A stretch of 64,000 nucleotides of DNA from an uncultured Chloroflexia bacterium (GCA_963797095.1 CAWCNY010000003.1:672001-736000), one strand, 5' to 3'. Numbered from the stretch's first letter, positions 34,866 to 56,450 are shown. Program-made: numbers and translations. The notes: generated from the sequence alone by a model not told the origin.

Positions 34866-34938
34866 CGAGGTGTGTCCTCCTTAATTCCTGTTTCCGGCGT
34901 CAGACGGCAGACCGTTAGCCATCGCCATCCGGCGCAAT

Positions 34939-39794: not shown

Positions 39795-39931
39795 AATATC
39801 GCAGTGACACTCCACGTGTGATAGGCAACACGTGACACGCAAACGCCCATTAAAAAGCACGCAAGCCCATAACCGTTACGTGTTGCCTTTTGATCATAGG
39901 TATAACTTGCTGGTCTAATCGTTGTTCAATT

Positions 39932-42673
39932 ATGGATAGTACTTCCACTTCATTCGGCCAATGGCTCAGAAAAACGCGTAAAGCCCAGGGCATAACCCAG
40001 GAAGAGCTCGCGTCACAAATCGGCTGTGCCTTCGAGACAATTCGGAAGATCGAGGCAGGAAGCAGGCGCCCATCGCGCCAGATGGCCGAGCTAATCGCGC
40101 GCAAGCTTGGCATAGCTGAGCGGGACCTACCCGAATTCGCCGCCTGGGCAAGAGCCGATTCAAACAGGCAGCACGCGCCTGCTCCTATCGAACACAATGA
40201 TCAGGGCACAGGCACGTCCCCACATCTCACCCCTCATCCCTCACGTTTCACGTCCAGCGGCATCCCCTCCCCGCCAACCCCGTTCATCGGTCGCCAGGAC
40301 GAAGTACAGGCCGTTTGCCATCTCCTCGAAGGCGAGCGCACGCGCCTCGTCACCCTCTTGGGTCCACCCGGCATAGGCAAGACCCGCCTCGCCATTGAGG
40401 TCGCCCGCACCTGCAAACAAGACTTCGAACACGGCACGTTCTTTGCAGAGATGGCCTCCATTTCAACCCATGAACTATTCATCCCAACCCTCGCCGCCGC
40501 CATTGGCATCAAGGGCAGGGGTGGCCCCGACGGCGTGAGCGACCCCCACCGTATCATCTACGACCACCTGTGCGGGCGTCGTGCCCTCCTCGTGCTCGAC
40601 AATATGGAGCACATCCTCCCCGAAGCCGCTAACGAAGTGATCGACCTGCTAGATGCCTGTCCCCACCTCAGAATCCTCGCCACCAGCAGAGAACCCCTCC
40701 ACATTTACGGCGAACGCGAGTACGATGTGCCTCCCCTCACCAACGCCCAGGTCGACCCGGACCCTGATGCGAAGTCCCCCAACCTCGCGCGCCCACCCTC
40801 GTACTATGAACAATACGAGGCCGTGCAGCTTTTCCTCCAGCGCGCACACGATGTCGATCCCAATCTGACCCTCACCGAAAACCACGCCTCCTACATAGCC
40901 CGCATCTGCCATCAACTGGATGATTTGCCCCTCGCCATTGAGCTAGCAGCCGCCCAGTGCAAAGTGCTGACACCCAAAGTATTGCTAGCCCGCCTCTCCA
41001 AAAAGCTCGCCTTGCTAACACGAGGCGCGAACGACCTTCCTGATCGCCAGCAGACCCTCTTTGGAGCCATAGATTGGAGCTACAAACTCCTCACCGAGAG
41101 AGAACGCAAACTCTTCAGGCGCTTGAGCGTCTTCAAAGGGGGCGCATCCCTCGAAGCAATAGAGGCTATATGTGCCCTGCCGGGCGAGCAAGGCTCTGAT
41201 CTACTGAACTCAATTAGCGCCCTCGTAGACAAGAGCCTTCTAAGACGTGAAACAGATGACGAAGGCGAGCCACGCTTCTATATGCTCCTGACAATCGGAG
41301 AATATGCCGCCGGTCGCCTGAACGAAAGCGACGAAGCAGCAACTATACGCGAGCGTCACGCAGCCTACTACACCGCCCTCGCCGAGCACGCCGAATCTGC
41401 CCTCACAAGCGCCAGGCGCGAAACCTGGCTCAGCATCCTCGACGCCGAGCTATACAACCTCCGCGCCGCCATGCGATGGGCATTGCAATCCGACACCGAC
41501 AACCAGGCAAGCGCCAGGCCCATCCAGGCCCTCCAGGTCGCCGGGGCGCTCCACTGGTTCTGGTTCCTGCGCGGGCGCAGTATTGAAGGCCGCGACTGGC
41601 TTGAGAAATCACTTGCCGCCGCCCACAACCAAAACACCTACGAACACAACAACACCAAACCAATCCTCGCCAGGGCGCTTGACGCGGCGGGCAGGCTTGC
41701 CCTCATGCAAAGCGATTTCGATAGCGTCCTTCCCCTCCTCGAACAGGGCGTGGCTCTCTGGCGTGATATTGGCGACAAGCGCGGGCTGGCCTACGCCCTC
41801 ACCAACCTGGGCGTTGCCATCGTCTACCTGGGCCGTCAGGATGGCTCCGCAGGCACGGCCCTTATCGAAGAAGCCGCCGCCATCTTCAAAGATCTGAAAG
41901 ATAACTGGGGCCTCGCTTTCGCCCTCGATTTCATGGGCGACGCCATCGCCCTCCTCGGCGGCAGCGACGAACGGGTAGCCAGGCACAAATTGCAAAGCCT
42001 TAACCTCTACCGGGACCTCGAGGACAGCTGGGGTATCGCCTCCCTCCTCAGCGACCTCGGCTACACGGCCCTCCGCCAGGACGATTTCAACAGAGCGCGC
42101 CAGTACCTCGAAGAGGCCCTCGAAGTAGCGCGCATCGTAGGTGACAAGCGCTATATCGCCTTCGCCGTCGGTGGCCTGGCCGAGGTTACCTGGCACATGG
42201 GTAACCTCGTTGAAACGCACAAACTCTTCACCGAGAGCCTGGAACTCCACCGCGAATTGGGCGAGCGCCTCGGCGAGGCAACCGCCCTCCGCAACCTCGG
42301 CCTTCTCGCCCATACCGAAGGCAAAGTATACGAAGCGAGCAAACTCTTCAGGCAAAGCCTTAAGATCGCCCAGGAGGTCGGCAACAAGCAAAACCTGGCC
42401 CTCATGCTGGGTGCTGCTGCCGGGCTGATCGGGGCGGTCGGCAAGACCAGGGAGGCCGCCCGTCTGCTCGGCGCATCAGATACCCTACGCGAATCGAGCG
42501 GCGGTCTCCTCCCCCCCACCGACCGCATCCAGCGGACCTATACCTACGAAACCCTCCGCTCTCTACTGGGCGACTCCAGCCTCGAAGAGGAAATGGCGAA
42601 TGGCAAAGCTACTCCTCTGGAGCGAAGTCTACAACTAGTTGAATCCGGCCTCCTGTCTATCTACACAGATTAA
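39932..42673 (+). CDS. XRE-HTH / NB-ARC-like STAND ATPase / TPR transcriptional regulator
   Basis: FGQWLR..TQEELA..KIEAG.RRPS; GPPGIGKT, LVLDNMEH, ATSRE, LPLAIELAAA, WSYKLL; TPR-like C-terminus. Confidence 0.92.
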   Translation: MDSTSTSFGQWLRKTRKAQGITQEELASQIGCAFETIRKIEAGSRRPSRQMAELIARKLGIAERDLPEFAAWARADSNRQHAPAPIEHNDQGTGTSPHLTPHPSRFTSSGIPSPPTPFIGRQDEVQAVCHLLEGERTRLVTLLGPPGIGKTRLAIEVARTCKQDFEHGTFFAEMASISTHELFIPTLAAAIGIKGRGGPDGVSDPHRIIYDHLCGRRALLVLDNMEHILPEAANEVIDLLDACPHLRILATSREPLHIYGEREYDVPPLTNAQVDPDPDAKSPNLARPPSYYEQYEAVQLFLQRAHDVDPNLTLTENHASYIARICHQLDDLPLAIELAAAQCKVLTPKVLLARLSKKLALLTRGANDLPDRQQTLFGAIDWSYKLLTERERKLFRRLSVFKGGASLEAIEAICALPGEQGSDLLNSISALVDKSLLRRETDDEGEPRFYMLLTIGEYAAGRLNESDEAATIRERHAAYYTALAEHAESALTSARRETWLSILDAELYNLRAAMRWALQSDTDNQASARPIQALQVAGALHWFWFLRGRSIEGRDWLEKSLAAAHNQNTYEHNNTKPILARALDAAGRLALMQSDFDSVLPLLEQGVALWRDIGDKRGLAYALTNLGVAIVYLGRQDGSAGTALIEEAAAIFKDLKDNWGLAFALDFMGDAIALLGGSDERVARHKLQSLNLYRDLEDSWGIASLLSDLGYTALRQDDFNRARQYLEEALEVARIVGDKRYIAFAVGGLAEVTWHMGNLVETHKLFTESLELHRELGERLGEATALRNLGLLAHTEGKVYEASKLFRQSLKIAQEVGNKQNLALMLGAAAGLIGAVGKTREAARLLGASDTLRESSGGLLPPTDRIQRTYTYETLRSLLGDSSLEEEMANGKATPLERSLQLVESGLLSIYTD

Positions 42674-42728
42674 TCTCTGACAGGAAAAAAGCTATCTTAA
42701 ACGGGCTGGACCTGCCCCCGCTTCATTT

Positions 42729-42775
42729 TGTGACACTTCTAGTGACGGTAAATCCACTTGTATATCCCATAGAAT
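42729..42775 (+). promoter_or_regulatory. Direct-repeat operator plus -10 (copy 3) upstream of the peptidase-precursor operon
   Basis: TGTGACACTTCTAGTGACG-N22-TAGAAT. Confidence 0.65.
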
Positions 42776-42822
42776 GTCTGTAGAGTAATAGACACTCTAG
42801 TTCGCTCCGCGGCGCGTGAGAG

Positions 42823-44478
42823 ATGGGTAAGTATAAAGTCGATACCGCCATTCACAGTCCTACTGACACTGTAGCCTACCACCAACAAGATACCAGCCAT
42901 TGGTGCGCCTCAGCCTGCGCGCTCATGGTGCTCCATACTCTTGGCGTGACACGTTCGGCGGGCTTCCCGCTCGACCAAAAGCGTGTGCGCATGGTAGCAC
43001 AAAACAGCGCCAGGTCCGACCCTACTTATCAATGGGTCGCGGCCCCCGATGGCCTGACGGCAGCTCTCAACTACTTCTGCGAGCGCAGCGATGTGGCCCT
43101 CCCAGATAAGCAAGGCGCAACCAGGCGCTGGGAGTTGGTGGCCGCCGACACCGAGGAAGAGGTCTCCCGCTACATAGTCTGGACCCTCTGGCACTACCGC
43201 AGCCCGGCCATCGCCCTCGTCTTTGGTATGCAGCACTGGCTGGTCGTCGGCGGGTGCGTTACCAGCGCCCCACCTAAAGGCCCCGACGACACAGGCTACG
43301 ACATAATTGGCTTCCACCTCAGCGACCCCTGGCCCCCCATTCCTCGTGAGCTTGCCCGCAACGACCACTTCCAACACATGGACCGCCGCGAACCGACCGG
43401 CAGCTTCGTCGCCATAGACGGCTGCGGCAGCGGCTGGCAAGGAGACCCCAACAGCGACGTCCTGGGCGGGCGTGGCGTAGCCCTTCGCTACGTCTCTTAT
43501 AACGACTGGCGCGTCCGCGATCATAGCACCCCCGACCGCAGACGTCATACCGGCTACATGACCGGCATCCCTCCCACCCTCAAGCTAACCACCAGGCGCG
43601 GCAAGCCCGACATCCCGGTCCGCTCGCGCTGGGTCGGCAAATTCCTCGCCATCTGCGACCCCGTAACCACCACACAATCCCGCCGCACCACCGCAACAAG
43701 CGAACCCGCCGAGAGGTTCCTGACAGGTCTCCCAACCACCCCCCAGGCCCCCAAAGGCAATCCACAGAGCCTTCAACAGAACAAAGGACTCCTCTTGCGG
43801 CAAATATCACCCGCCGAAGCTATCGAGGTCGCCACACAAGCCCTGAGCAAAGAAAGTGCCTATTTGGAGCAGCCCCTGCAAGCCCATACAACCACACACG
43901 ATGGGGCTAAACAAGTCGATTTGCAGCAAGATCGGTTGCCATCAAACGCGGCACAGGCCGGAGAGCCTCTGCTAGTCGAATGGCTCGACGAACCTGGCAC
44001 CTACCACCTGGAATCGGCTTACTACATAATCCCTTTCACCTCGCATGGAGCGCAACACACTGCCGTACGCATAGCGGCCCGCATGCCCTTCTGGCTAAAA
44101 GATGCGCGCGAGGAACAAGAGGAGAAAAGCAAACTCTTTCTGGGTTTCAATATGCTTGCGCAAAACAGCCGCAATAATCACGAGGCGCGGCAGGCTTCCG
44201 CGATCATGGGCGCAGACAGAGCGCGCACCATCATAACGGGCGGCTCTTTCAGAGGTACACAAGGAGAGCGTATCGCCGTGCCGAACACCTACACAGGCAC
44301 GGGTAGAGCGGTCTGGAAGCCCTGCATCGAATCGTTCGATCCCTACTGTCCCTTCTACGAATTCGCGATCCAGGCGGCAGAAAATAACAGTAATCGTAGC
44401 GAGCCTGCGTACTTGTACGTTCGGGCCTTTGACGGGAAGGTATTCACCCACCTGACCGAACACTTCGGCGGCGCATGA
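42823..44478 (+). CDS. C39/papain-like cysteine peptidase with an additional C-terminal domain
   Basis: YHQQD..WCASAC (oxyanion Q, catalytic C), QHWLVV (H), SDPW (D). Confidence 0.75.
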   Translation: MGKYKVDTAIHSPTDTVAYHQQDTSHWCASACALMVLHTLGVTRSAGFPLDQKRVRMVAQNSARSDPTYQWVAAPDGLTAALNYFCERSDVALPDKQGATRRWELVAADTEEEVSRYIVWTLWHYRSPAIALVFGMQHWLVVGGCVTSAPPKGPDDTGYDIIGFHLSDPWPPIPRELARNDHFQHMDRREPTGSFVAIDGCGSGWQGDPNSDVLGGRGVALRYVSYNDWRVRDHSTPDRRRHTGYMTGIPPTLKLTTRRGKPDIPVRSRWVGKFLAICDPVTTTQSRRTTATSEPAERFLTGLPTTPQAPKGNPQSLQQNKGLLLRQISPAEAIEVATQALSKESAYLEQPLQAHTTTHDGAKQVDLQQDRLPSNAAQAGEPLLVEWLDEPGTYHLESAYYIIPFTSHGAQHTAVRIAARMPFWLKDAREEQEEKSKLFLGFNMLAQNSRNNHEARQASAIMGADRARTIITGGSFRGTQGERIAVPNTYTGTGRAVWKPCIESFDPYCPFYEFAIQAAENNSNRSEPAYLYVRAFDGKVFTHLTEHFGGA

Positions 44479-44551
44479 CCGGACCGCAAAACATGGCGGC
44501 TTGTGTTTCGCGCTCCCAGGTCACAGAGTTCAAATCATTGAGGAGGATGAC

Positions 44552-45019
44552 ATGGCACAGGATTGGATACAGAACAAGTTGGTAAGCGATATAGAGGACG
44601 GCCTATGGGGCGAGCGACTTCCCAAGAACCTGGTAGCGGTCTGGGGCTTCCCCGCCAACTCAGGACGCGAAGAATACGACCGCCTTTATCTATCCCTTAA
44701 TTTCAACGAGTACATCGAGTTCCCCCACAACGGCGTAGTCCACGTGGAGGACGCGGGTGGGCCTGACAACCCTTTCAGCGGTTCGATGGTCTGGCTGAGG
44801 CATGATACCCCCGTAGACCACGTGCGCATCGACGCCGTTGACCTCCAGCGCGGCTTCCTGCAAGGCGGAATAGCAGGCTCCCTCATGGGCAACGCCCAGA
44901 ACATGACTGCCAACAACGCCAACGCCCTGGCTGGAGTAGCTGCCGGTGGCGGCACTCTCGTATGCACAGGTGGCGGCACGCTCGTCTGCACAGCAGGCGG
45001 CCCCGGCACAGACGGCTAA
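44552..45019 (+). CDS. Putative RiPP precursor 1: long leader domain and core with GGGTLVCT x2
   Basis: GAGGAGG RBS; all Cys confined to the tail; homologous to 49154-49618; adjacent to LanC. Confidence 0.75.
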   Translation: MAQDWIQNKLVSDIEDGLWGERLPKNLVAVWGFPANSGREEYDRLYLSLNFNEYIEFPHNGVVHVEDAGGPDNPFSGSMVWLRHDTPVDHVRIDAVDLQRGFLQGGIAGSLMGNAQNMTANNANALAGVAAGGGTLVCTGGGTLVCTAGGPGTDG

Positions 45020-45044
45020 CCCACACCAGGCCGAAAACGCATTC

Positions 45045-45132
45045 AGGGGGTGTCACCCCCGCCGAGTGGTTGGGATGTCTCCCAACTCTCCCCTTTCCCC
45101 ACCTTACGGGGAAAGGGGTCAGGGGTGACGGG
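45045..45132. repeat. REP-like multi-hairpin element between convergent genes
   Basis: GGGGGTG/CACCCCC, GTTGGGA/TCCCAAC and CCCCTTTCCCC/GGGGAAAGGGG hairpins. Confidence 0.55.
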
Positions 45133-45188
45133 CAAACGCCCATCTCCCCATCTATGTCTATGCCAGGAGACCTATCCCTGAAACCCCT

Positions 45189-47594
45189 TCAGGGCACTCT
45201 ACCCCATGCTTTCGGCTCAACAAGAAGTACCGAAGGCACCTGCGGGTGTGCCAACCTCAAATAGAAGTGCCCTATCCCTGCTACCCCAAGCATCAGGCCC
45301 GGAGCCTGAGCATTCGGCCTGCCTCCCGTCCCGCACGCCCACCACCCATTCGCCTTATACCTGCGCGTCCCTTCCTCCCCTACCTCTTGAGCCAGGCTCC
45401 CTAGAGCCGCCCTTTCGCCATCACCCATCACACCACCAAGCGCGGCATGCCCCAATATGGTCGCGTTACCCGCCAGCCCGTGACACAGGGAATAATTACT
45501 CCCCCTCATCGCCAGGTCGCTCCGAACCGCATGTTCCGTCGTGCCGATAGCGATCCGCGCCTCCTCCCGGCGGGCCTCTTCCCCGGTCAACTCATAAGCG
45601 CGTAACCGCGACAGCGCAATCCCCGGCGCGCCATGACACCAGTACGTCATATAAACGAGAGCATCCCCTTCCCGGCCCCTCCCCCGCGACGGCCCTGTCT
45701 CCCGGAAATCAGGCCAGTTTCCCAACCTGCAATTCAACCACCCTTCCTCGTACCTGAAAGCGCCAAGCGCGGCCTCTCGGTATTGCCCATCCCCCGTCGC
45801 ATCCCACAATTCCAGCAGAGCGTACCCTATCCCCGCCGCCCCATGTGAAAACCCCGTAAGCGGCGCGGCCACCTTGCTCCCCACGCTCGGCCACGACAGC
45901 GCTCCCGACCTCTTATGCACCCGCGCCGAAGCCACCAACTCCTCGCCCAGCCGAACAGCGTAATCCAGGAGAAAGGGCGCGCCTGTAACCGACATAAGCG
46001 CCAAACACCCCACTATACCCCCGGCACTCCCCGTCAGCAGGTCGTACTCGTGCCCTGGGTGATCCTCCGAGGCACAGCGCCGCGCAATCTCGATGCCCGC
46101 CTCCAACATCTCTGCCTCACCAAGCAGCAGACCCGCCCTCCCCGCACCAAGCGCGATTCCCAGCCACCCCGTGTACAAGCCGGGTCGCGCCGCGGGCTTA
46201 AAAGCCTCCGCCTTATAGTAAGCATGGCGAAACGCCCCCAGCGCGCTTCGCCGCGCCTCCTCGTCGCCCGTCAACGCCGCGTATTCCGCCAGGAAAAGCC
46301 CAACACCAGCCGTGCCCGTATACAGATCGGGTCCAAGCGTGCTCCACTCCTCACGCCGCCCGCTGATCTCCGTCCCCTTCCTCTCATACAACACCTCGGT
46401 GCCGAGCCAGTTGCACATCCCCTCGTACCACACCGCGTCCGCCACAAGCTGATCCGCTATCGTGGATTCGTTCGAATTTATACCCGATCCAGACCGAGCA
46501 ATCTCGCCGATGCCGGCCCTTTTACCCCCAACCCCACGTCTCTCGCCCACACTTTTCGCGATTCGGCCCTCGTCAAACTGGAATGTGTAATTCCCCTCAG
46601 AACCCGCACCAAGATACGGCTGTTCGAGCGAGATACCCGCCTCATTGAAGCGATCAACCACCGCCCGAAGCCGGTCCTCAATCGAATGTGCGCCCTCCTC
46701 ATAAGCCCGGATAAGCCCATCCGCCACCAGCCCACACCTGTGCAGGCCGAAGCTATCCCCATCGCCTGGGTCTTCAGCAAGGCCCAACCCCGGTGCCAGC
46801 ATCAGAGTAAAAGCGGGCACAACACGCTGCATCTCTCCGTACAGGCTCGGGTAAATCTCCTCAAGCAGCGATGCCACCCTCCGGTAATGCCCCCGCCGAA
46901 TATACAGCACCCCTGCATCACACCGCTCGTACCTCTCGGGGTCATTCAGCACCTTCAGCCTGAACGGCACCTTTGCCCTATTCAAAGCTTCAGTACACAG
47001 TCGCATCAAGCCCGCCGCTCCCTCAGGCGTCACGTGCCAGTAAAAGCGCACCAGTTCCCCGCCACTCTCCTGAGAGCCATCATCCGGCGCGTCCAGGTCG
47101 AGATTCCCCACCGCCATATAGAAACCGGGCGACACAGCAGGAAGCTCCTTGCCAAACCGCAACAGCAGACCTCGTCCCCCCTCACCCTTCCTTCGGTAGC
47201 TCCCTTCCCCCGCCACCAGCAACAACCCCGCCCGTCCGGCAGCCACCAGCCCCGGCCCCAACCCCTCCAGGTCCACCTCCTCCCACCCATCGGCCCAGTA
47301 CCCCTGCCCGCTATTCGCTTCCGACAGCCTCTCGACATATGGAGCCTGCCCCCCCAATTTCCCGGCCCCCTCGCCCTCGCGCACAGGGATAGCCGACCCC
47401 GCACAATAGAAATGGCTGTAGAGGCGTGATTGAAGCGTATATTGAAGGAAACTGCGTGCCGTCCTCGGCGTGATCTCTCGCTCGATCCGGGGCAGCAATC
47501 GAGGCGAGCGCTTACCGAACCACGAAAAGACGGTGGACGAGTGTATATGCACAGCGCCAACAGCGCCGCTCAACTGCATCTCGTAATTGCTCAT
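45189..47594 (-). CDS. HopA1-like lyase domain fused to a LanC-like lanthionine cyclase
   Basis: N-terminal GFYMAVG, LVRFYWH, FRLKVL, RCDAGVLY, LAEDP..SFGLHRC; C-terminal DLYTGTAG, DLLTGSAG, GFSHGAAG, WCHGAPG, LCHGLAG, GLMLGVAG. Confidence 0.85.
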   Translation of the reverse strand: MSNYEMQLSGAVGAVHIHSSTVFSWFGKRSPRLLPRIEREITPRTARSFLQYTLQSRLYSHFYCAGSAIPVREGEGAGKLGGQAPYVERLSEANSGQGYWADGWEEVDLEGLGPGLVAAGRAGLLLVAGEGSYRRKGEGGRGLLLRFGKELPAVSPGFYMAVGNLDLDAPDDGSQESGGELVRFYWHVTPEGAAGLMRLCTEALNRAKVPFRLKVLNDPERYERCDAGVLYIRRGHYRRVASLLEEIYPSLYGEMQRVVPAFTLMLAPGLGLAEDPGDGDSFGLHRCGLVADGLIRAYEEGAHSIEDRLRAVVDRFNEAGISLEQPYLGAGSEGNYTFQFDEGRIAKSVGERRGVGGKRAGIGEIARSGSGINSNESTIADQLVADAVWYEGMCNWLGTEVLYERKGTEISGRREEWSTLGPDLYTGTAGVGLFLAEYAALTGDEEARRSALGAFRHAYYKAEAFKPAARPGLYTGWLGIALGAGRAGLLLGEAEMLEAGIEIARRCASEDHPGHEYDLLTGSAGGIVGCLALMSVTGAPFLLDYAVRLGEELVASARVHKRSGALSWPSVGSKVAAPLTGFSHGAAGIGYALLELWDATGDGQYREAALGAFRYEEGWLNCRLGNWPDFRETGPSRGRGREGDALVYMTYWCHGAPGIALSRLRAYELTGEEARREEARIAIGTTEHAVRSDLAMRGSNYSLCHGLAGNATILGHAALGGVMGDGERAALGSLAQEVGEEGTRRYKANGWWACGTGGRPNAQAPGLMLGVAGIGHFYLRLAHPQVPSVLLVEPKAWGRVP

Positions 47595-47889
47595 AATTGG
47601 TGAATTATACAAAATCGCGGGAGCAAATATGAGCAAAGAAGGAGTGCAGGGGCGAAGTCCCAGCCGGGGCCTCAGGTGTCCCTACCCTTCCATATCTCCC
47701 TAACATCTCTCACGAGTACGCACCTGCGCCTGCGCAGCAATTCTACCCCAATAAACCACCCGAAAGTACACCCCAAAACCTGTCCAGTTTTGCCCCATCA
47801 ACGTCACTTAGTATATAGAGGCAAACCGACCATCCACCACCCGAATCTCAACAAAAAGCCGGAAGACTACCCGATGGTCTACATTATTG

Positions 47890-49119
47890 TCAGGTCTGAA
47901 CTTGCTGCCAGAGCATTCTGCGCGTACCAAGCGGAATCCCCAACAACGCAATCGAAGCCTCTTCCGGGCGCTGGAGGATATTGAACGCAAGCTGTAACAA
48001 CACAACAATATTACCCGTCAGCAAGGCAGATACCTGCCCCTGCTCATAGGCCGTCTGCACCAGCCGGGCAGTGGCATACCGCACCGACCGGATCAGAAAC
48101 GCATCATGCAACCCAGGGTCGGTCAACCCACTCCCGCTCACATAAGCCGACCAGAAAGCCCGTATAGCCGGTCTCATCTTATCCAATGGATATCGCGCCA
48201 GGTCCAGAAACCGGTCGGGCGGGTCCTGCCCCGTAACAGGGATCGAAAGGAGCCAGTATGTCAGATACTCACCAAAAAACGAGCCGACATCCCAGCAGGG
48301 ATCGCCCAGCCTCGACAACTCCCAATCCACTATCTTCACGCCCGAAGACCAATCATAAGCGACCCCACCGCCCCCTCCGCAGGTCGGGCGATGCGCAAGT
48401 ATATTATTCCACTTGATATCGCAATGTATAGACGTATGCGAAATAGCCGCTTCCGCCCCTCAGCCCCTACCCACTCCTGCCTCAGACCATCAAGCAGCGC
48501 GCAGAACTCCGGAAATCTCTGCACGATCTTCACCGTCTGCACATTAGCATTCGAGAGCAACCCAAGCTCCCGCAAATAAGGCCTGTGCACAGACAATATC
48601 CAGTGTGGGGACCCACCATAAAACGAACGCTCAAGCACCCTGAACAGATTCAGGGTTATCTTCCAGCGTGATCGAATGAAGCGCCGCCAGCGCCCGCCCG
48701 ACCTCCCGCGCCAACCCGACCGAGAACTTGCCGGTGCGCGTGTGCCGCTCGCCAAGCGTCTCAGCCTCCCTCACCAGATCAAGAATTAGGGTGCTATCCG
48801 CCTCCTCAAAACCAAAGAAGCGAGGCAGAAAGCGAGCCACACCCGTCCCTGCCCCGCTCCCAAGCAGAGCCTCATAAACCGCCGCCTCATGCCCCACAGT
48901 AGCAGACCGCTCCGCCCCCACTCCCTGCTTCAGCAGATAAGAAGGCCCCAACTCGCTCTCAACCCGGAAGTTAGTATTGCGAAACGAAGCGTCGGAGATG
49001 CGAAGGGCATCCGCAACCAACACTCGCGATGATAGAAGTTCGTTCTGGAGGAGATAGTTGAGAATGATCCATTGTGCAGGCCGAGCCAATCTTTCGTCAG
49101 ACCTCAGCGACTCAAACAT
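47890..49119 (-). pseudogene. APH-like phosphotransferase (class V LanK/LxmK-type peptide kinase) split by two frameshifts
   Basis: YLLKQ, HEAAVY, VGRALAALH; shifted segment PHWILSVHRP..LDGLRQEW; HCDIKWNN, IVDWE, GDPCWDVG; shifts near 48640 and 48460. Confidence 0.75.
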
Positions 49120-49153
49120 TGCACTATCTCGTTGTGCGGATAAGTACCATACG

Positions 49154-49618
49154 TCACGTCTTGGCCTTACCACCCTTATTGGGCTTTTCGCCACATCCAC
49201 AGTTAGGCTTGGTGCTACATCCACCATGAACCGACCCTGCAAGCAACGCTTCTACTAGACCAGTCTCGCCGAGGCTAGCTGCAAGATCAGCATGAGGCAG
49301 ATAGAGTGTTGCTAGATCACCCACCAGAAAAGTCTGTACGCGGTCAACCTCAGTTGCACCGCCAAACCACACAATGGCAGGCTCGAGGGCCTCAGGATCA
49401 CCCTGCTTCTGGTGGTCCTTACTTACTTGAAAGACAAACTCAACCACGTCCTTCCCGAATCTTAGGTACTCATCGAAAGCTAGCGATCGATATAAGCGCC
49501 AAGTGTCTTTCGCCTCATCTTTCTGCAGATAACCACTTATTGGAACCAAATTCTTACCTAGGTTCCTGATCTCCTCAATAAGTGGATTACTGCGCAACCC
49601 CTCTTTCGTGTCGGCCAT
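49154..49618 (-). CDS. Putative RiPP precursor 2 (paralog of 44552-45019) with core SVHGGCSTKPNCGCG
   Basis: GGAGGAG RBS; shared KNLV..G, RLY.SL.F.EY, VW....T.VD.V and FL.G.(I/L)A motifs. Confidence 0.7.
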   Translation of the reverse strand: MADTKEGLRSNPLIEEIRNLGKNLVPISGYLQKDEAKDTWRLYRSLAFDEYLRFGKDVVEFVFQVSKDHQKQGDPEALEPAIVWFGGATEVDRVQTFLVGDLATLYLPHADLAASLGETGLVEALLAGSVHGGCSTKPNCGCGEKPNKGGKAKT

Positions 49619-49775
49619 CTTCTCCTCCATTCTGTCAATCGAGACAACTGTTACAGCACACCATTGAGAGCGAATGGGCCAATGTATGGGCTCAGCAACG
49701 GACCAAAAGGCACAGTGATAACGACGTTCAGATAATGCCAATCATACGTGATATGAAAGCGTCTGGACCCACCAT

Positions 49776-49804
49776 ATTGTACATCTGACTTTTCACTATG
49801 TCAA
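49776..49804 (-). promoter_or_regulatory. Sigma70 promoter for precursor 2 and the kinase
   Basis: TTGACA(49804-49799)-17 bp-TACAAT(49781-49776). Confidence 0.65.
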
Positions 49805-49829
49805 CACTCAGGTGTTATTGGGGTGCATT

Positions 49830-51312
49830 TCAGATAGGGGGCGAGTTGTAGACCAGGTGCCAGCACTGATCGAAGCGTGAACTGAGGATTGCCGTCCGCA
49901 CGGGCAACAGCTTTTCGGCACCCAGGCGGCTCCAACGCATACCTGCTCCGGCGAAGCGAGCCTTGAACTGCTTGCCTGCGCTCTCCACCGTGCCTGACCC
50001 AATCGGATAGCCCGCTTCGCGCATCTGGGAGTAGTTCATACGATGTGCGTTGTTGCTGAAGTAACCCGCTTCCTCCTTTAGCTGTTCAGCTTGTTTTGGT
50101 TGCCGCTCTGCCAAGTCAGCTAGCACCTCTGCCAAGTAGCCTGCTCCACCCTCAAATAGCAGCTTTTTCTGTGCCTCTAGCCATTGTTTGGAGGCGCCCG
50201 CATCGCCTTCGTGTGCTGCTAAAGATGCTGAGGCCAGGTGCTGCGCTCCATGATACCAGTCCACCAGTTGAGCACTGTCATACAAATGCTCCTCAGCTAG
50301 GTTCCAAATCCAGGCGGCACCGTCTGCTACTACCAGCGTGTGATCAGCCCTCTCCCACCCTCTGTGGTGTGCCTCTCCCCATAGCATCTGTCCGAAAACG
50401 GTGGGTCCGCCTAGATGGGCTACATAGCTTTGGTTAGTAGCACGGGCACGACTATCTTCGCTTCCTTCCTCCTCAAACTCAGTGGCCAATGCAGGCTCCG
50501 TTTTATCAGCCTCCATCTCCATAGCTTCAATGTCGAACACGCAGCCCACCTTCAACTCTTTCCAACCTTCCTCACGAATATGGATCATAGCGCCATCCAT
50601 ACTCGCACCCATCTTTGTGAATTGCCCAGGCACCCCAGGCACCCCAGGCACCCCAGGCACCCCAGGCACCCCAGGCGCAAATGCGTTGGAACCTTCTGCC
50701 TTAGAACCTTCCCTCTCGACCTGTACCTGTATATGTACATCGTTGGCGGAGTTGGCTGCCACCCACCGTGCAGCCTCCACCTCTCCAAAGCTACTACCCC
50801 ACTCCTGGCACAGCCTCCAAACAGTGCTGTCGGAGATGGACACACCTCCTATCTGCTCAAGTATTTGTGCCCCTCTCTCGAAGTCCACCAATCCTCCCAG
50901 CCATACTGACTGCTTGATTATCCATTCGCTCCAATGCACGTCCCACAAGTGCAACTGCTCATCCAGGGGGGAAAAGCCCCTTACGGCAGTAGGAGCAATA
51001 GTAGTAGGAGCGTTGTACTTTGATGGTGCCTATCCTGCTTTCCACAGGGTGAGCCTTCTCTCCCTTGTAGCGCATCTCCCTCCCACACTCAGGACAAGGT
51101 GGGCCAGGTACATTCTGAGTGGAGACCTCTTGCTGTGCCAGCACCGCCTGTGCCATCTGCTCACTCAGTTGCCTGCGCAGCTTCACTACCGCCTCCTCGA
51201 TCTGAGCTAGTGTGGGTTGGGGGGTGTCGGCTGACCAGCCAATCAGTTGTTCAATTGCTTGCTCTGCCTGTGCCATAAGCTCTGCCTTCATCTGTTCTCG
51301 GGTACGTTTCAT
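49830..51312 (-). CDS. DDE transposase in two frames (50959-51312 and 49830-~50975), probable programmed frameshift
   Basis: CPECG..YYCSYC; junction TTTTCCCCCC; MDGA, ADGAAWIW, DWYH, GSGTVES. Confidence 0.85.
50625..50678. repeat. 9-bp tandem repeat CCCAGGCAC x5-6 (PGV repeats) inside the transposase
   Basis: Read directly from the sequence; stays in frame. Confidence 0.9.
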
Positions 51313-51491
51313 CAGGAGCCTCCATGCTACGCGCAAGATCCTCCTATTATCTCAAACCTTGCCCCCTATCTGAAATGCACCCGTGTTATTGATCCTACAC
51401 TATCTCTGTAACACATTCTGGTGTCTTGACAACAATCCTTTATGTTGCAAGGATAAGGCAATTACTGGTCAACAATTAGGGGGTAGTGAAA

Positions 51492-52280
51492 ATGCCCTTC
51501 GATCTCAAGTATCATTGCCAGAGTTGCCCAACATTCTGCGGGCTAGCATGTGTGCAGATGCTAGCATACTCTCTTGACCAAGTCTTGCAGATTCAGCAAG
51601 CAGATTGGAAAGGATGTTCGGAGTCAGATGGATGGGGTGCACACCCCACCAATCTGCAACGCTACCTAAATGGTTTGCCGAACAAAGCGACTTCTATCCC
51701 AAACCTTACTTTCTATCTTGTGATATCCGACACCAAGAGCGCAATATCACACTGGGTTGCATATACACTTCGCAAGAAAAGGCCGGCACCTATGGTGCTT
51801 GTTGAGGGAGACGATCACTGGGTATTGGTCAAGGAATACACGCTGAAAGAAGAACCGGCCGCCGATTCACCCACCACCAAGTACAAGATCGACCGCTTCT
51901 TCATAGCGGATCCTTCCGTAAACTACGATCCCGTATCGGGTGAATGTCTAGAATGCCTTGCGAATGAGCTAAATGCCCTTACATTGCATGATCCCGACGA
52001 TATATGCGGAAATGCTGAAAGTTATACTTGCGGTTCTAAGCATTGCAAGATCGATCGGGGCCGTGGGATAAGGAGAACGAAGTATAGCACTTGGCGGAAT
52101 CACTGGCTGCATCAATTCCCAGGTCCGATATCTATTTGGTCGCATAAATATCTCGCTGTTATTGCGCTGGACGAAGAGAACGATCCTCTGAATGGGGATG
52201 ATTTTACAAGCCACACACTAGCAGGCGAAGAATGCGTAAATGGAGCATGGACTGATGAGGATTGTCCTGAGTTTGATTGA
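51492..52280 (+). CDS. Second C39/papain-like cysteine peptidase
   Basis: YHCQ....CGLACVQML, DHWVLV, IADPS, GRG; aligns with the N-half of 42823-44478. Confidence 0.7.
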   Translation: MPFDLKYHCQSCPTFCGLACVQMLAYSLDQVLQIQQADWKGCSESDGWGAHPTNLQRYLNGLPNKATSIPNLTFYLVISDTKSAISHWVAYTLRKKRPAPMVLVEGDDHWVLVKEYTLKEEPAADSPTTKYKIDRFFIADPSVNYDPVSGECLECLANELNALTLHDPDDICGNAESYTCGSKHCKIDRGRGIRRTKYSTWRNHWLHQFPGPISIWSHKYLAVIALDEENDPLNGDDFTSHTLAGEECVNGAWTDEDCPEFD

Positions 52281-52350
52281 TGACCCACTCTCAAAATACT
52301 GAAGCCTTCATTTGACCGAATGTTAGAGTTCTACACTATAGCAAGATGAG

Positions 52351-53001
52351 GTGCCTACTGTGGCTGCAGATAATAAATTCCAACTAGATGACGATACCCT
52401 CCGCAACAAGGCCCAGCAAGCATTACAGGAAGAAGCGGAGGTCATACCTAATTCCACCTCCTCGTGGGACAAATTGCTTGCTAATGCATCAGTTGCTCCA
52501 TCCGATCTCATTCTGCAAGTTGAGGATCTGAAGGAAGGTGAGCAGGGTTTTTGCTATTATTTGGTTCCCATCGTCAATCCCAATGGCTCTATACCCGTTG
52601 TTATACTCTTGGACGCAACCACTGGTGAGTTGCTTGAATCTACAGGCGTCGAAGAGAGTGTACAAACCGCCGATGGCCTCAACGCAATCATTCTAGTGCC
52701 TGCTCAACAAATAAAGGATCAGCTTCTATCGATCGGTTTTGTCACAATAAATGGGCAACGAAGGCCCATAAAGCAAGTTCAAATTGACCAACGTTCAGTA
52801 TGGCGGCATACTAGGCTTACGCCTCTGCCATATTTCCCTCGCTATAGGATGCACGTCACATTCAGCGATGGTCTCATTCAAGAACTGAGTACGTTCTACG
52901 TTCCAATATCGGGCCTTTCACTGCCAACTCCTCCACCTGGTGGGCTAGGAGAGGTCCCGGACTTAACACCATATACGAACTATCCAGGTATTAAACAATA
53001 A
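52351..53001 (+). CDS. Hypothetical protein resembling the C-terminal domain of 42823-44478
   Basis: LQVEDL..YYLVPI vs LVEWLD..YYIIPF; VWRH...PYFPRY vs VWKP...PYCPFY; FYV vs LYV. Confidence 0.6.
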   Translation: MPTVAADNKFQLDDDTLRNKAQQALQEEAEVIPNSTSSWDKLLANASVAPSDLILQVEDLKEGEQGFCYYLVPIVNPNGSIPVVILLDATTGELLESTGVEESVQTADGLNAIILVPAQQIKDQLLSIGFVTINGQRRPIKQVQIDQRSVWRHTRLTPLPYFPRYRMHVTFSDGLIQELSTFYVPISGLSLPTPPPGGLGEVPDLTPYTNYPGIKQ

Positions 53002-53008
53002 TCTGCAA

Positions 53009-55949
53009 CTATAACAACCCGTGCTCCATCGCAAATCGAATAGCCGCAGTACGCGACGTGACATCGATCTTATTGTAGATTGAGTAGAGGTGCGAACGTA
53101 CTGTATTCGGGCTTAGAAATAGCCGAGCAGCTACCTGTGCATTGTTGAGCCCAAGCGCAATCAATCGTAACAACTCAACCTCGCGTTTGCTGAGGCCGTT
53201 AGGATATGTTGGATCTTTAGTCAGTAGGTTTGTAGGTTGCGTCGCGTCTATTGGTAGCGCCATCGGATCTACAGGAGCTTCCACTGCGAAGGCCATAGAC
53301 ACTATTCGATCCAACGACAGGGCTTGACCCTCGGCCAAATACAAATTAAACTCATCATCTCCTAATCGCTTTCGAGTCTGAGCCACCATTTGCTCATATT
53401 CTGCAACGTCAACTGTCGTGGCGTTCACAAAGCTAATCCCCTCAGGGCGAATGGATAGCGGTGCGGCAAGCAATCGTGCAGCCAATTGGGGATCACCACC
53501 ATCAAAAGCCACCCCAGCAATGCTAGCCAGGCACAGGGCAGCCTGCCGTTTGCGCCCCAACTCCTGGTAAATTGCTGCTGCTTCTTGGTGTAGCGCCAGT
53601 GTACTATCATACCGTCTCTGCCGGTACGTTGCATATCCAATATGACGGGTTATTAAGGCCAACCGGCCCCTGTCACCCAGAGCCTGATATAGAGCGAAAC
53701 TTTCCCGATAGAACGCCTCAGCCTTGTCGTATGCCCCCTCAAGGTGCGCCACCATTCCATAGCCAAAAAGAACGTGCCCCAGATAATACCTGTCGCCTAC
53801 CTCACGCAGCAAGGGTATCGCTTCATCGAAACTACTACGGGCCAGACTGAAATCGCGAAGCTGAACGGCATCTAGGCCAACCGTCCCCAGCATCGAAGCA
53901 ACATTCCACTTGTCGCCCAGTTGCCTGTACAAGCCGATACTTTCCTTATCAAGGGACACAGATCCATTTACATCCCCCAGGCGGTATGGGATGCTGGACG
54001 CAAGGTCCAAGCCATGCGCCAACCCCCAAAGATCACCTGTTTCACGAAAGAGTGCTAACCCTTCGTCGGCCAGTTCATACAGCGAGCGTTCCAACGTATG
54101 CGATCCAACTCGCGAGAGTAATATCAGTGCATAAGCAAGTAGCTTCTTCTCACCCAGTTCCCGCAGTATTGCAACGCTTTCCTGTAGCGCAGCACGCGAA
54201 CCATCCAGGTCAAAATGCTGTTCGGCTAACTTAGCGGACGCATAAAGCGCTTTGGCAAGCCCAACACTTCGCTCGTTGTGGTCAATTTTCTCCAGTACGC
54301 TACCCAGCCAACGCTGCCCCTCAACAAAATGCCCCCTGAAATACCAATACCACCCCAGCGCCCCAGCCAACCGCAACCCGACGTTGGCATCCCCACCATC
54401 ACTCAGGCTCCAGCCCAGGGTCGCGCGGATATTGTCCAGGTCGGCATCCAGCTTGCGCAGCCAGGGATCGCGGCCACCCGTCGTCATATGAGGCTCGGCC
54501 TCCTCTGCCAGCGCCAGCATAGCCAGCGCGTGGGCGCGGCGCACCTCGTTCTCTTCCCCACTCTCGACCAGCCGCTCAAGCCCGTACTCGCGGATCGTTT
54601 CGAGCATACTGAAGCGCGCTTCCCCGTCCGGCCCTTCCTCCTGCTTCAACAAACTCTTATCCAGCAGCGATGCGACCAGGTCCAGCGTGTCCAGGCCTGA
54701 AGGCACGCGCCCTCCTCCCTCGCTCGCCACCCGCTCCGCAGCGTCCAGCGTAAAGCCCCCCACGAACACCGACAATCGTCTGTACGCCGCCTTCTCCGCC
54801 TCGTCCAGCAGGTTGTAGCTCCAATCGATAGCTCCCCGCAGCGTGCGCTGGCGAGGCGGCAGATTCTGCGCACCTCCCGTCAGCACCCCAAGCCTGCTGT
54901 CGAGCCGGGCCAGCAGCGCTTGCGGCCTCAACACATTGATCCTCGCGGCGGCAAGCTCTATCGCAAGCGGCAGCCCATCCAGTTTCCGGCAAATATCGGC
55001 AATCACAACCGCCGTCGCGTCATCCACAACCAGGTCAAGACGAGACCGCGCGGGCACGCTGCACAAACAGGTCGGTGGCCTCCGATTGCGACAGGCTTTC
55101 CGCCGTGGTCTGCGCGTCGCGTGGAGGCACAGGCAGCGGCGGCACTCGCCAAATCTGCTCGCCATAAACATGCAGCGCGCTCCGGCTAGTCGTTACCACC
55201 TGCACATCAACCGCGGCAGTGAGAAGCTCTGCCAGGTGCTCCTCCGGCTCGTCGATCTGCTCCATATTGTCGAGCACCAGCAGCATCCGCTTGTCCCGCA
55301 GAAAATCGGCCAGCACCTCGTTCGCGGGCCTCCCCGTCGCCTCCTTCACCCCCAGTGCCGACGCCACAGCCTGCGCAATCCCTTTGCCATCCACCAGGGC
55401 AGCCAGCGGCACAAAAAACACCCCGTCCTCGTAATCGCCGCCCCTGAGCAAACGCCGCCCAGCCTCTATGCTCAGGCGCGTCTTCCCTATGCCCGGCGGG
55501 CCAAGCAGCGTAAGCAACCTCACGCCCGGCTTGCTCAGCAGATCCACCACCCGCTCCACATCCGCTTCCCGCCCGACAAAAGTCGTGAGTTGCGCCGGTA
55601 AGTTCGATGGGGGTTGGGCGCGCACCCGCCACGGGGCTTCCGGGTCGAAGTCCGGGTCGGCGGCTGCCCCACTTCCCGGGTAACCCTCGTCGGTGTCCAG
55701 GTCGGAAATAGCAAACAGCACAAAAGCCTTGTGCTCGTTGCGGGCGACCGCGAAAATGTGCGCTACCCTTTCGGCCATCCGCCGCGTGGGCCTCGCCGCG
55801 CCCGCTTCCCACTCCTGCACCAGCTCCGGCGTGCAATCTACCCCCACGCGCTCCGCAAGCTCTTCCGGTGAAATTCCGCGCGCTTCCCGGCGGCTTCGTA
55901 GCCACAACCCGAATAGCGTGCGTGCCTGTTGTTCTTTTTCAGTCACCAT
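53009..55949 (-). pseudogene. XRE-HTH / STAND ATPase / TPR / LuxR-HTH regulator with one frameshift near 55040
   Basis: FGLWLR, GPPGIGKT, LVLDNME in 55035-55982; LDGLPLAIELAAA and LSKREVELL..LSPNTVRSHL in 53009-55171; removing one base restores RAVRLDLVVDD. Confidence 0.85.
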
Positions 55950-56450
55950 AGCCACACCTGTGCTCTTTATATAGAGACACAAATCAAAAGGGCGGGTGGT
56001 TTCCAGGGCCGACGCCTATTTCTTGACGACAGCCCTGCGTCGTTGTCCCACAGTATAGCACTACCGTGCCCCGGATGTAATAGGTCTCTGGTCCCATTGC
56101 ATGTCGGGCGTTATGCGTACCCAGGCATGCAGACCCCGCACCCCACCCCAAAATTAATCCTCCCCCGATCCCCTGATTAATCCTTTCATCCGATGGAGCC
56201 ACCGTTCCAAAGGGCTAGCATAAGGGCAATGGCGAGATATTTCCAACCAACCAAAATAAAGTACCTCGCCAGGGCGGTAACGAGTATGGCTCCTGTCAAA
56301 CGCAAGCACGCTACAACGACCCGAGGCGCCAGGGTCAACAGAGCACAGCAGGCCACGCAAGAGTCACACTCAGGTTTTACGGCTCTCCAGGGGTCAAGTC
56401 TCGCTCAATACAGGGGGAGCGCACCCGGTGGAGAAAAGGAGGGTAAGAAA

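Follow-up and report, generated by a model that had tools for sequence, protein, structure and literature searches.

Lanthipeptides, a major source of antibiotic-like peptides, are divided into classes according to the enzymes that build the rings. The subject of this study is a candidate lanthipeptide gene cluster in a 64,000-nt stretch of DNA from an uncultured Chloroflexia bacterium (GCA_963797095.1 CAWCNY010000003.1:672001-736000). This whole stretch is called the window below, and all positions are counted in it unless another locus is named. The closest described systems are the class Vb lanthipeptides, which the accessible parts of three papers credit to Pei et al. 2022 and describe as made by a standalone LanK (PF01636), LanY (PF17914) and LanC (PMC12328550, PMC11186320, PMC12291118). 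For class Va, the available text reports an AlphaFold model of CaoK and CaoA in which the leader touches the kinase but makes no contact with the lyase; to block the binding of the leader, CaoK was targeted at residues 359-374 (PMC9486802). In the lyase CaoY, according to the same text, elimination was impaired or abolished by the mutations R187A and K219A (PMC9486802). A survey by Eyles et al. 2021 reports 1,340 HopA1 proteins, 96% of them beside a phosphotransferase, and it flags HopA1-LanC fusions, found by genome mining, as a possible new and uncharacterised lanthionine synthetase (PMC8153245). A characterisation of such a fused lyase-cyclase was not found in openly searchable papers, where HopA1-LanC occurs only in Eyles et al. 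and in the preprint of that survey; subscription journals and supplements lay outside this search. The label "class VI lanthipeptide" refers to a different enzyme.

The cluster in the window combines a LanK-like kinase, a fused LanY-LanC protein and two precursors with long leaders. We estimate a probability of about two in three that it is a class V-type (class Vb-like) lanthipeptide cluster, most likely inactive and decaying in this genome. Directly supported are the domains present, the conserved order of the genes, their co-occurrence across the family and the conserved catalytic residues; the chemical steps, the cleavage site and the products are what we infer.

The fused lyase-cyclase and its kinase

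The fusion protein contains the Pfam domains HopA1 (PF17914, residues 166-342, E 1.7e-43) and LANC_like (PF05147, residues 434-805, E 1.8e-51). The stored record of the same protein, P0001, has 796 residues, and the gene therefore probably begins at an internal Met of the 815-residue open reading frame (ORF). In an alignment of 15 sequences, R178, K209, R219 and Y226 of the lyase half (P0001 numbering) are invariant. Judged by residue numbers and not by a direct alignment to CaoY, their spacing is near that of R187, K219, R229 and Y236 in CaoY, with a first interval of 31 against 32 and the other two equal. The WCHG, CHG and SHG motifs of the LanC half are unchanged across the same alignment; presumably they are the Cys-Cys-His zinc ligands and the catalytic His, after NisC-type cyclases.

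The nearest solved structure to the HopA1 part is the "Lyase" chain of PDB 9dk1-3 (E 1.8e-10). The LanC half is nearest to LanM-type cyclases, with TIGR03897 at E 3.1e-71 and LicM2 at E 2.1e-17 in the PDB profile search. The TIGR03897 match covers model positions 553-932 only, i.e. the cyclase part, at 240 bits against a cut-off of 304 bits, and the N-terminal LanM dehydratase domain of class II is absent from the fusion. Likewise, NF038150 (E 3.9e-34) and NF038151 (E 5.7e-20) match the cyclase region only, far below their cut-offs.

The kinase gene of the window is broken. Its N-terminal piece has a weak Pfam APH match (E 0.003), and the N- and C-terminal pieces match the NCBIfam model NF038156 (LxmK) with E 1e-7 and 3.5e-14, both under the model cut-off because the gene is in pieces. 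The kinase family conserves Lys52, His211-x-Asp213, Asn218 and Asp241-Trp-Glu in our alignment, and the Lys, HxD...N and DWE motifs are retained in the window pieces when these are read through in three frames. In a profile search the nearest solved structure is the "Kinase" chain of PDB 9dk1-3 (E 5.6e-16). The entries 9dk1, 9dk2 and 9dk3, with their Kinase and Lyase chains, are probably a class V-type dehydratase complex and would then be a useful template.

The original prediction for this locus, made by a model from the sequence alone, had named an APH-like kinase and a HopA1-like domain fused to a LanC domain with WCHG, CHG and GFSHG motifs. The fusion is confirmed by the two Pfam domains on one ORF, and the kinase is LxmK-like by NF038156 on both of its pieces and adjoins the fusion, all its matches being weak or below cut-off.

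Precursors with a long leader

Counted from internal Met codons, the precursors pre1 and pre2 have 155 and 154 residues, and they are 31% identical over 113 residues (E 6e-8). Cys occurs solely at positions 138 and 146 in pre1 and solely at 134, 140 and 142 in pre2, which agrees with the earlier claim of two homologous proteins of about 155 residues with Cys restricted to their tails. The core of pre1 consists of two Thr-Leu-Val-Cys-Thr (Thr-x-x-Cys-Thr) units with a Gly run before each. A precursor at locus L098, 75% identical to pre1, has four Thr-x-x-Cys-Thr units. In pre2 the core comes after Gly-Gly and holds the three Cys plus Ser/Thr.

In the alignment of the precursor family, a conserved N-terminal region and a near-invariant Phe-Leu-x-Gly-x-Ile motif are followed by a variable linker and a hypervariable, Cys-bearing C-terminus. 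AlphaFold2, run on a 24-row alignment, predicts six beta strands at residues 27-92, followed by helices and a disordered tail, with a predicted local confidence (pLDDT) above 90 at about residues 30-100. Scanning 24 members gave no meaningful Pfam or NCBIfam match for the leader (best E 0.025 and 0.031). Foldseek gave 0 matches at E <= 0.001 for the pre1 model against the PDB, and we therefore give the leader no fold assignment. The leader of the family is about 110-130 residues long with a confidently predicted beta domain, and it lies outside the hidden Markov model (HMM) libraries that were searched.

The precursor family also has giant members of 306-864 residues (L020:3985-6579, L047:4194-6572, L039:3849-5921, L080:4833-6671, L064:4958-6751, L037:3712-5334 and L041:5788-6708). 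They share the N-terminal leader region, which is followed by hundreds of residues with repeated Cys-Pro-Ser/Thr motifs; Cys makes up about 9-16% and Pro 10-23%, and the genes lie directly upstream of the kinase and the fusion. These proteins may be substrates for protein-scale thioether cross-linking.

Conservation of the cassette

One genome per prokaryote species was scanned for the locus, and 80 loci were returned. Among the candidates scored, 304 relatives of the fusion had E <= 1e-10, and among the matches listed all 120 fusion homologues carry both Pfam domains, at 98% coverage. In 74 of the 80 loci the match begins at residue 149 of the fusion or earlier and so includes the lyase part, four loci match the LanC part only, and two are cut by contig ends. 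The LanC-only loci that were scanned are L057, with adjoining LanB genes, and L076, with an ABC transporter.

In 73 of the 80 loci the gene directly upstream of the fusion is the kinase; these are 73 of the 74 with the lyase part, and the 74th has 186 nt upstream only. Iterating an HMM from pre1 and pre2 recovers the precursor family at 50 of the 80 loci, and at 50 of the 73 that bear the kinase; an earlier HMM iteration gave 52 and BLAST clustering 53. All 50 loci place the precursor upstream of the kinase and on the strand of the enzymes; in 42 of them the gap to the kinase start is at most about 180 nt, or the two overlap by less than 100 nt. Tandem precursor copies occur in five loci besides the window. 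Homologous fusions do accompany the precursor family, an outcome that favours the system first proposed for this locus. No other gene recurs in more than 11 loci when antisense shadow ORFs are excluded (Ser/Thr kinases, S8 proteases and ABC transporters are found in 5 to 10 loci each), and the conserved unit is therefore three genes: precursor, kinase and fusion.

The host records of the cassette are from Chloroflexota, Acidobacteriota, Actinomycetota, Bacillota, Bacteroidota, Planctomycetota, Verrucomicrobiota, Pseudomonadota, Gemmatimonadota, Cyanobacteria and Nitrososphaeraceae archaea. The archaeal records L009 and L013 are contigs of metagenome-assembled genomes assigned to Nitrososphaeraceae, which are ammonia-oxidising archaea, and they have the kinase and the fused lyase-cyclase as a pair. 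No precursor of the long-leader family was found in these two loci, L009 having only 582 nt upstream of the kinase.

Predicted docking of the leader on the kinase

The intact kinase of L005 was co-folded with its precursor. The pair passed with a score of 0.64, against 0.00 for the best of three controls; the pass mark is attained by 58 of 80 solved complexes and by 2 of 110 mismatched pairs. The runs share at least 42% of their contacts, and the pLDDT of the partner is at least 49. In the predicted interface, precursor residues 117-132, the helix with the FLxGxI motif, lie against kinase residues 342-367. The interface holds the near-invariant Phe119 and the invariant Gly122 of the precursor and the conserved Gln351 and Asn355 of the kinase.

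State of the copy in the window

Compared with the single-frame kinases of L002 (411 residues) and L005 (378 residues), the kinase frame of the window shifts at about 48645-48651 and shifts back at about 48450-48475. The gene has stops in every frame, and its match in a search of its own genome is interrupted by 4 stops. One frame suffices for each of the kinases of L094, L095, L096 and L097, and L002 and L005 each encode theirs in a single ORF. Neither another LxmK-like kinase nor a further HopA1 gene or precursor was found in the window's own genome. One of the two regulators that bound the cluster, regulator 2, consists of two overlapping ORFs in different frames, with a frameshift at about 54940-55033; the intact 983-residue regulator of L094 aligns to it in frames -2 and -3.

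An insertion sequence (IS) of 1,562 bp is also present. It has 25-nt terminal inverted repeats, 96% complementary, and a 9-bp direct repeat on both flanks, i.e. a target duplication. The larger of its two ORFs matches NF033572 (ISKra4) with E 1.1e-54, at 186 bits against a cut-off of 205 bits. Two further copies in the genome are 100% and 96% identical (G000:C3:55048-56611 and G000:C2:908159-909697). The 100%-identical copy is on the same contig, and the insertion is for this reason taken to be recent. A transposase model match, here below cut-off, together with inverted repeats, target duplication and several copies places the element with the ISKra4 family.

The transposase is in two frames that join at a C run near 50955. 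This split was considered as a local lesion and dropped, because the 100%-identical second copy shares it; the split belongs to the element and is no local error. About 106 nt inside the IS (about 49929-50034) recur at 12 other genome sites with 72% identity, and may be either a small repeat dispersed over the genome or a part conserved among related IS copies. The nearest relative of the window enzymes, L002, comes from the same genome as L098, and it has an IS200/IS605-type transposase-like ORF (L002:6171-6593) at the place expected for the upstream precursor; the pair of pepA, a peptidase gene described below, and a precursor persists there on the convergent side. Mobile elements appear to strike the cassette repeatedly within the genus.

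With two frameshifts in its only LanK, one in a regulator and an IS between the divergent operons, the cluster is most likely inactive and decaying. The original prediction had called for a repaired kinase; the frameshifts are there, and what it did not conclude is the probable death of this copy.

The candidate peptidases

The proteins encoded by pepA and pepB are 24% identical (E 2e-9). In an alignment of eight relatives, including the N-terminal part of pepA, Gln12, Cys18 and His111 are invariant, with Gln and Cys in a Gln-x5-Cys motif, and Asp142, which stands before the invariant Pro143, is kept in seven. The two Cys-His-Asp peptidases that had been predicted are thus homologous proteins, with Gln, Cys and His in 8/8 and Asp in 7/8 sequences.

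The C-terminal half of pepA (43693-44478) can be aligned to orf216 and to separate proteins of L005 and L095, with six invariant columns. The domain is fused in the window pepA and in L094 and split in the window orf216, L005 and L095; because it is found both fused and split, the N- and C-terminal parts of pepA are taken to be functionally linked. A homologue of orf216 in L005/L096 has E 3e-8, and no Pfam family matches orf216. An identity of this domain with PepSY was rejected, since one of five members matches, at E 0.27.

Seven of 18 other genomes of the same genus have the fusion. Five of these seven have the peptidase; it was found neither in the 11 that have no fusion nor in 12 genomes of two sister families, counts that come from related genomes and hence from non-independent samples. 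It adjoins the cassette in L094, L095, L096 (the L005 contig), L098 and L099, where a regulator of the same type is also present and the gene order varies. The pepA orthologue in L098 has 66% identity. A third copy of a C39-like peptidase lies at G004:C9:84450-85163 (open frame of 459 residues) on a contig where no fusion was found, so that the family is not bound to the cassette in every case. Five precursor cores were read next to a peptidase gene, and all of them come after Gly-Gly or a longer Gly run (the sites in L098 and L099 are unmarked).

A word-indexed search of 5.8 billion proteins gave three relatives of the peptidases with the alignment as query and one with pepB; as such a search depends on shared words and on length, it suggests rarity and does not establish it. 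Among the genomes searched, the C39-like peptidases were seen in the window's own Chloroflexia genus only, which appears to have added them as a new small family.

Layout of the locus

The cluster consists of ten features and is bounded by two regulator genes (39890 to 55982), see Table 1.

Table 1. Features of the cluster, with window coordinates.
Feature	Position	Strand	Description
Regulator 1	39890..42673	+	927-residue ORF, intact; HTH, NB-ARC/AAA and TPR domains
pepA	42823..44478	+	551 residues; C39-like Cys peptidase domain and a C-terminal domain without assigned function
Precursor pre1	44552..45019	+	155 residues; ORF open from 44501; core after Gly run
LanY (HopA1 lyase)-LanC fusion	45189..47636	-	815-residue ORF, intact; PF17914 and PF05147
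LanK/LxmK-like kinase	about 47890..49119	-	Broken, three frames; NF038156 matches
Precursor pre2	49154..49618	-	154 residues; ORF open to 49741; core after Gly-Gly
ISKra4-like insertion sequence	49821..51382	-	Between divergent pre2 and pepB; NF033572, inverted repeats, target duplication
pepB	51486..52280	+	264 residues; standalone C39-like Cys peptidase
orf216	52351..53001	+	Standalone counterpart of the pepA C-terminal domain
Regulator 2	53009..55982	-	HTH, NB-ARC, TPR and LuxR-type GerE (Pfam, both halves); one frameshift

The layout of the window merges two arrangements that its relatives carry separately. In the L098 type, a regulator, pepA and a precursor are convergent with the fusion and the kinase. 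In the L005 type, a regulator, orf216 and pepB are divergent from the precursor, the kinase and the fusion. Regulator 1 has NCBIfam matches to TPR/SARP-like and HTH models, each below the model cut-off. Homologues of it, with 37-63% identity, adjoin the cassette in L005, L014, L094, L095, L098 and L099, and among the genomes searched such a regulator of the cassette was seen only within the window's own genus.

All the parts listed in the original prediction (kinase, fusion, two precursors and two peptidases) are found at the locus. It had also reported that no LanB, LanM, decarboxylase, YcaO or exporter is visible. A Pfam scan of the 20 large ORFs between 33 and 60 kb agrees: it found neither LanB, a LanM dehydratase, a flavoprotein decarboxylase, YcaO or a transporter, nor LanD or LanX, smaller ORFs being left out of the scan.

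The cluster is flanked by genes for sigma-54, an NtrC-type activator and Ig-like and SLH-domain proteins. The sigma-54 gene and the NtrC-type sigma-54 activator lie at 33357-36318, just upstream of the cluster, and no connection to the cluster was seen.

Alternative explanations

Several observations weigh against the reading of a decaying class Vb-like cluster, and they are given here with the alternatives that they favour. The first concerns the lesions. Their second site in the kinase lies among G4 runs, where a sequencing error is plausible. The out-of-frame middle segment still has 71% protein identity to L002, as could result from an assembly error or from a lesion of very recent date. 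An old pseudogene cluster would not be expected to keep its fusion, both precursors, both peptidases and regulator 1 intact, as they are here. There is no read-level support, as the sole public run listed, a soil metagenome with 9% of the sampled words, gives one contig of 214 nt covering 49601-49800, and no product or transcript supports the reading, with no RNA data listed.

The G runs, the identity to L002 and the intact genes would fit a fully functional cluster, with the frameshifts in kinase and regulator introduced by assembly or consensus calling and two lanthipeptides made by the organism. The kinase shifts fit as well, since the second restores the frame after only about 60 codons. 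We consider this alternative unlikely. The four aminoacyl-tRNA synthetase genes, rpoB and gyrA are uninterrupted over 5,601 codons, and since these six large housekeeping genes are open throughout, the assembly is not generally indel-ridden, whereas three breaks fall in about 4.2 kb here. By our own arithmetic, which assumes random placement with the housekeeping genes included, the chance that all three fall in the 4.2 kb of kinase and regulator 2 is about 0.008. In addition, the first kinase shift is outside any homopolymer, and the IS insertion with its 9-bp duplication is a genuine event at the locus. A real and recent inactivation of the window copy is therefore probable. It is put no more strongly, and an assembly error no lower, because the broken segment has remained so similar to L002 and the reads cannot be checked.

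The second alternative concerns the Cys-His-Asp proteins, which might not be leader peptidases but proteins for immunity or self-processing, or unrelated papain-like hydrolases that merely travel with the cassette. Membership in C39 is not established, as every Pfam match is sub-threshold: PF03412 has a best E of 0.0047 (4/8 members), PF13529 of 0.01 (4/8), and pepB obtains 12.1 bits against a C39 cut-off of 22. Matches to PDB profiles have E 0.44 or worse, the one at 0.44 being Alr0975, aligned around the Cys; an earlier profile search against the PDB gave nothing better than E 0.11. The model of pepB, with a mean pLDDT of 37, is unusable. Classical C39 domains are fused to a transporter, and there is no such fusion here. 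Among the 80 surveyed loci, tblastn finds the peptidase only in L005, of the window's own genus.

Against this second alternative stand the five other genomes of the genus that have the gene beside the cassette in differing gene orders, the conserved Gln-x5-Cys, His and Asp residues, and the cores that follow Gly-Gly beside it. The weak matches also mostly point the same way, to C39 and C39_2, to the C39-like DUF3335, and to Guanylate_cyc_2 and Phytochelatin synthase, which we take to be papain-like families; of the single-member matches, Diedel and DUF7740, Diedel is unrelated. A role outside leader cleavage is thus rather improbable, and we keep the reading as candidate leader peptidases.

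Some points also count against the precursor part of our reading. The family is missing from 23 of the 73 kinase-bearing loci, three of which have less than 700 nt upstream of the kinase. The precursor's own fold is uncertain in the co-fold, with a pLDDT of about 50. Since a solved kinase-lyase entry (9dk1-3) exists, the co-fold pass could partly mirror a known complex.

That the 155-residue proteins are instead an accessory or a scaffold, with the enzymes acting on another target or the LanC half being a thiol transferase like the eukaryotic LanC-like proteins, is very improbable: the missing family in those 23 loci, the confidently folded domain, which is unusual for a leader peptide, and the presence of LANCL1 and LANCL2 among the PDB matches of the LanC half (E 5.5e-7 to 4.5e-6) would fit, but the proteins have the standard precursor pattern of a conserved N-terminus and a hypervariable C-terminus with Cys and Ser/Thr, occur in tandem copies directly upstream of the kinase, and have their conserved pre-core helix set on the kinase by the co-fold, and the LanC half is far nearer to the LanM cyclase.

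Proposed pathway and its meaning

In a functional class Vb-like cluster of this kind, the APH-fold LanK would phosphorylate Ser/Thr in the C-terminal core of the precursor of about 155 residues. The HopA1-type lyase half would then remove the phosphate to give dehydro-residues, and the zinc-type LanC half would join the core Cys to them in (methyl)lanthionine rings. During this the substrate is probably held via its long leader, with the conserved FLxGxI helix on the conserved C-terminal helices of the kinase. The standalone C39-like Cys protease would cut after the Gly-Gly that precedes the core, and the repeated core units of pre1 could be separated by it as well. The repeat cores of the pre1 type suggest, by their sequence, one small Thr-to-Cys ring per unit, with possibly several units released.

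Beyond this, we put forward a wider proposal as tentative. The cassette could be a distinct, phylum-spanning lanthionine system in which the kinase reads an unmodelled folded leader together with a helix, the cores range from 8 residues to Cys/Pro/Thr-rich proteins of 500-860 residues, and a new standalone double-glycine peptidase cuts the two-to-four-unit Thr-x-x-Cys-Thr cores of this genus into tiny single-ring peptides. If so, the substrates of 500-860 residues would mean thioether cross-linking of whole proteins.

The fused lyase-cyclase cassette is widespread, yet in searchable papers it has been noticed by genome mining only. The site predicted here for leader-kinase docking is testable. 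Because the copy in the window looks inactive, intact orthologues are preferable for experiments.

Comparison with known systems

Class III and IV enzymes (LanKC, LanL) share the chemical logic of lyase, kinase and cyclase. They are single polypeptides with a Pkinase-type (PF00069) kinase and an OspF-type lyase, whereas the kinase here is a separate APH-type gene, and the class III/IV models NF038150 and NF038151 match in the cyclase region alone.

The kinase-lyase pair resembles CaoK-CaoY of class Va cacaoidin, and the Arg, Lys, Arg and Tyr that the accessible text gives for the lyase are conserved (PMC9486802). The leader contact near CaoK 359-374 resembles the helix predicted to lie on kinase residues 342-367. 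Class Va clusters differ in that they carry LanD and LanX, make aminovinyl-methylcysteine (AviMeCys), are without LanC and have short leaders.

The peptidases are like Peptidase C39 in the order Gln, Cys, His, Asp, in the Gln six residues before the Cys, and in the cores that come after Gly-Gly. They differ in their sub-threshold matches and in being standalone or fused to an unassigned C-terminal domain, with no ABC transporter.

Families 11/20 and 22 of Eyles et al., as far as the available text describes them, share the fused architecture and likewise have a phosphotransferase next to it. The peptides networked in that survey were short ones found near bait proteins (PMC8153245).

The closest likeness is to class Vb as the accessible sources describe it (SmoA/SmoC, SpcC): an APH-fold kinase, a HopA1-type lyase and a LanC, with cores containing Ser/Thr and Cys. 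The LxmK-like kinase stands beside a lyase of PF17914 with the catalytic Arg/Lys/Arg/Tyr, as in class V dehydratases, and the LanC half is a PF05147 domain whose WCHG, CHG and SHG motifs are invariant. These domains and conserved residues uphold the original proposal, class V dehydration followed by LanC cyclisation, as the best-supported mechanism. As for LanD and LanX, neither was found among the large ORFs scanned here.

The same sources also set class Vb apart. It has three separate proteins, where a single ORF encodes both LanY and LanC in the window and in each of the 120 homologues listed. The leader of about 130 residues with a predicted folded domain, as the precursors of the window have it, is a possible further difference. 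The cassette here is accompanied by a standalone C39-like peptidase, and the hosts there are Streptomyces, against a Chloroflexia bacterium here.

The original prediction held that the locus fits no standard class. This does not hold, since the enzyme set and its chemistry are those of class Vb and the fusion had already been noticed. Novelty stands in part: the long-leader family with its broad linkage to the fusion, the predicted leader-kinase docking and the small C39-like family appear new with respect to the libraries and papers searched.

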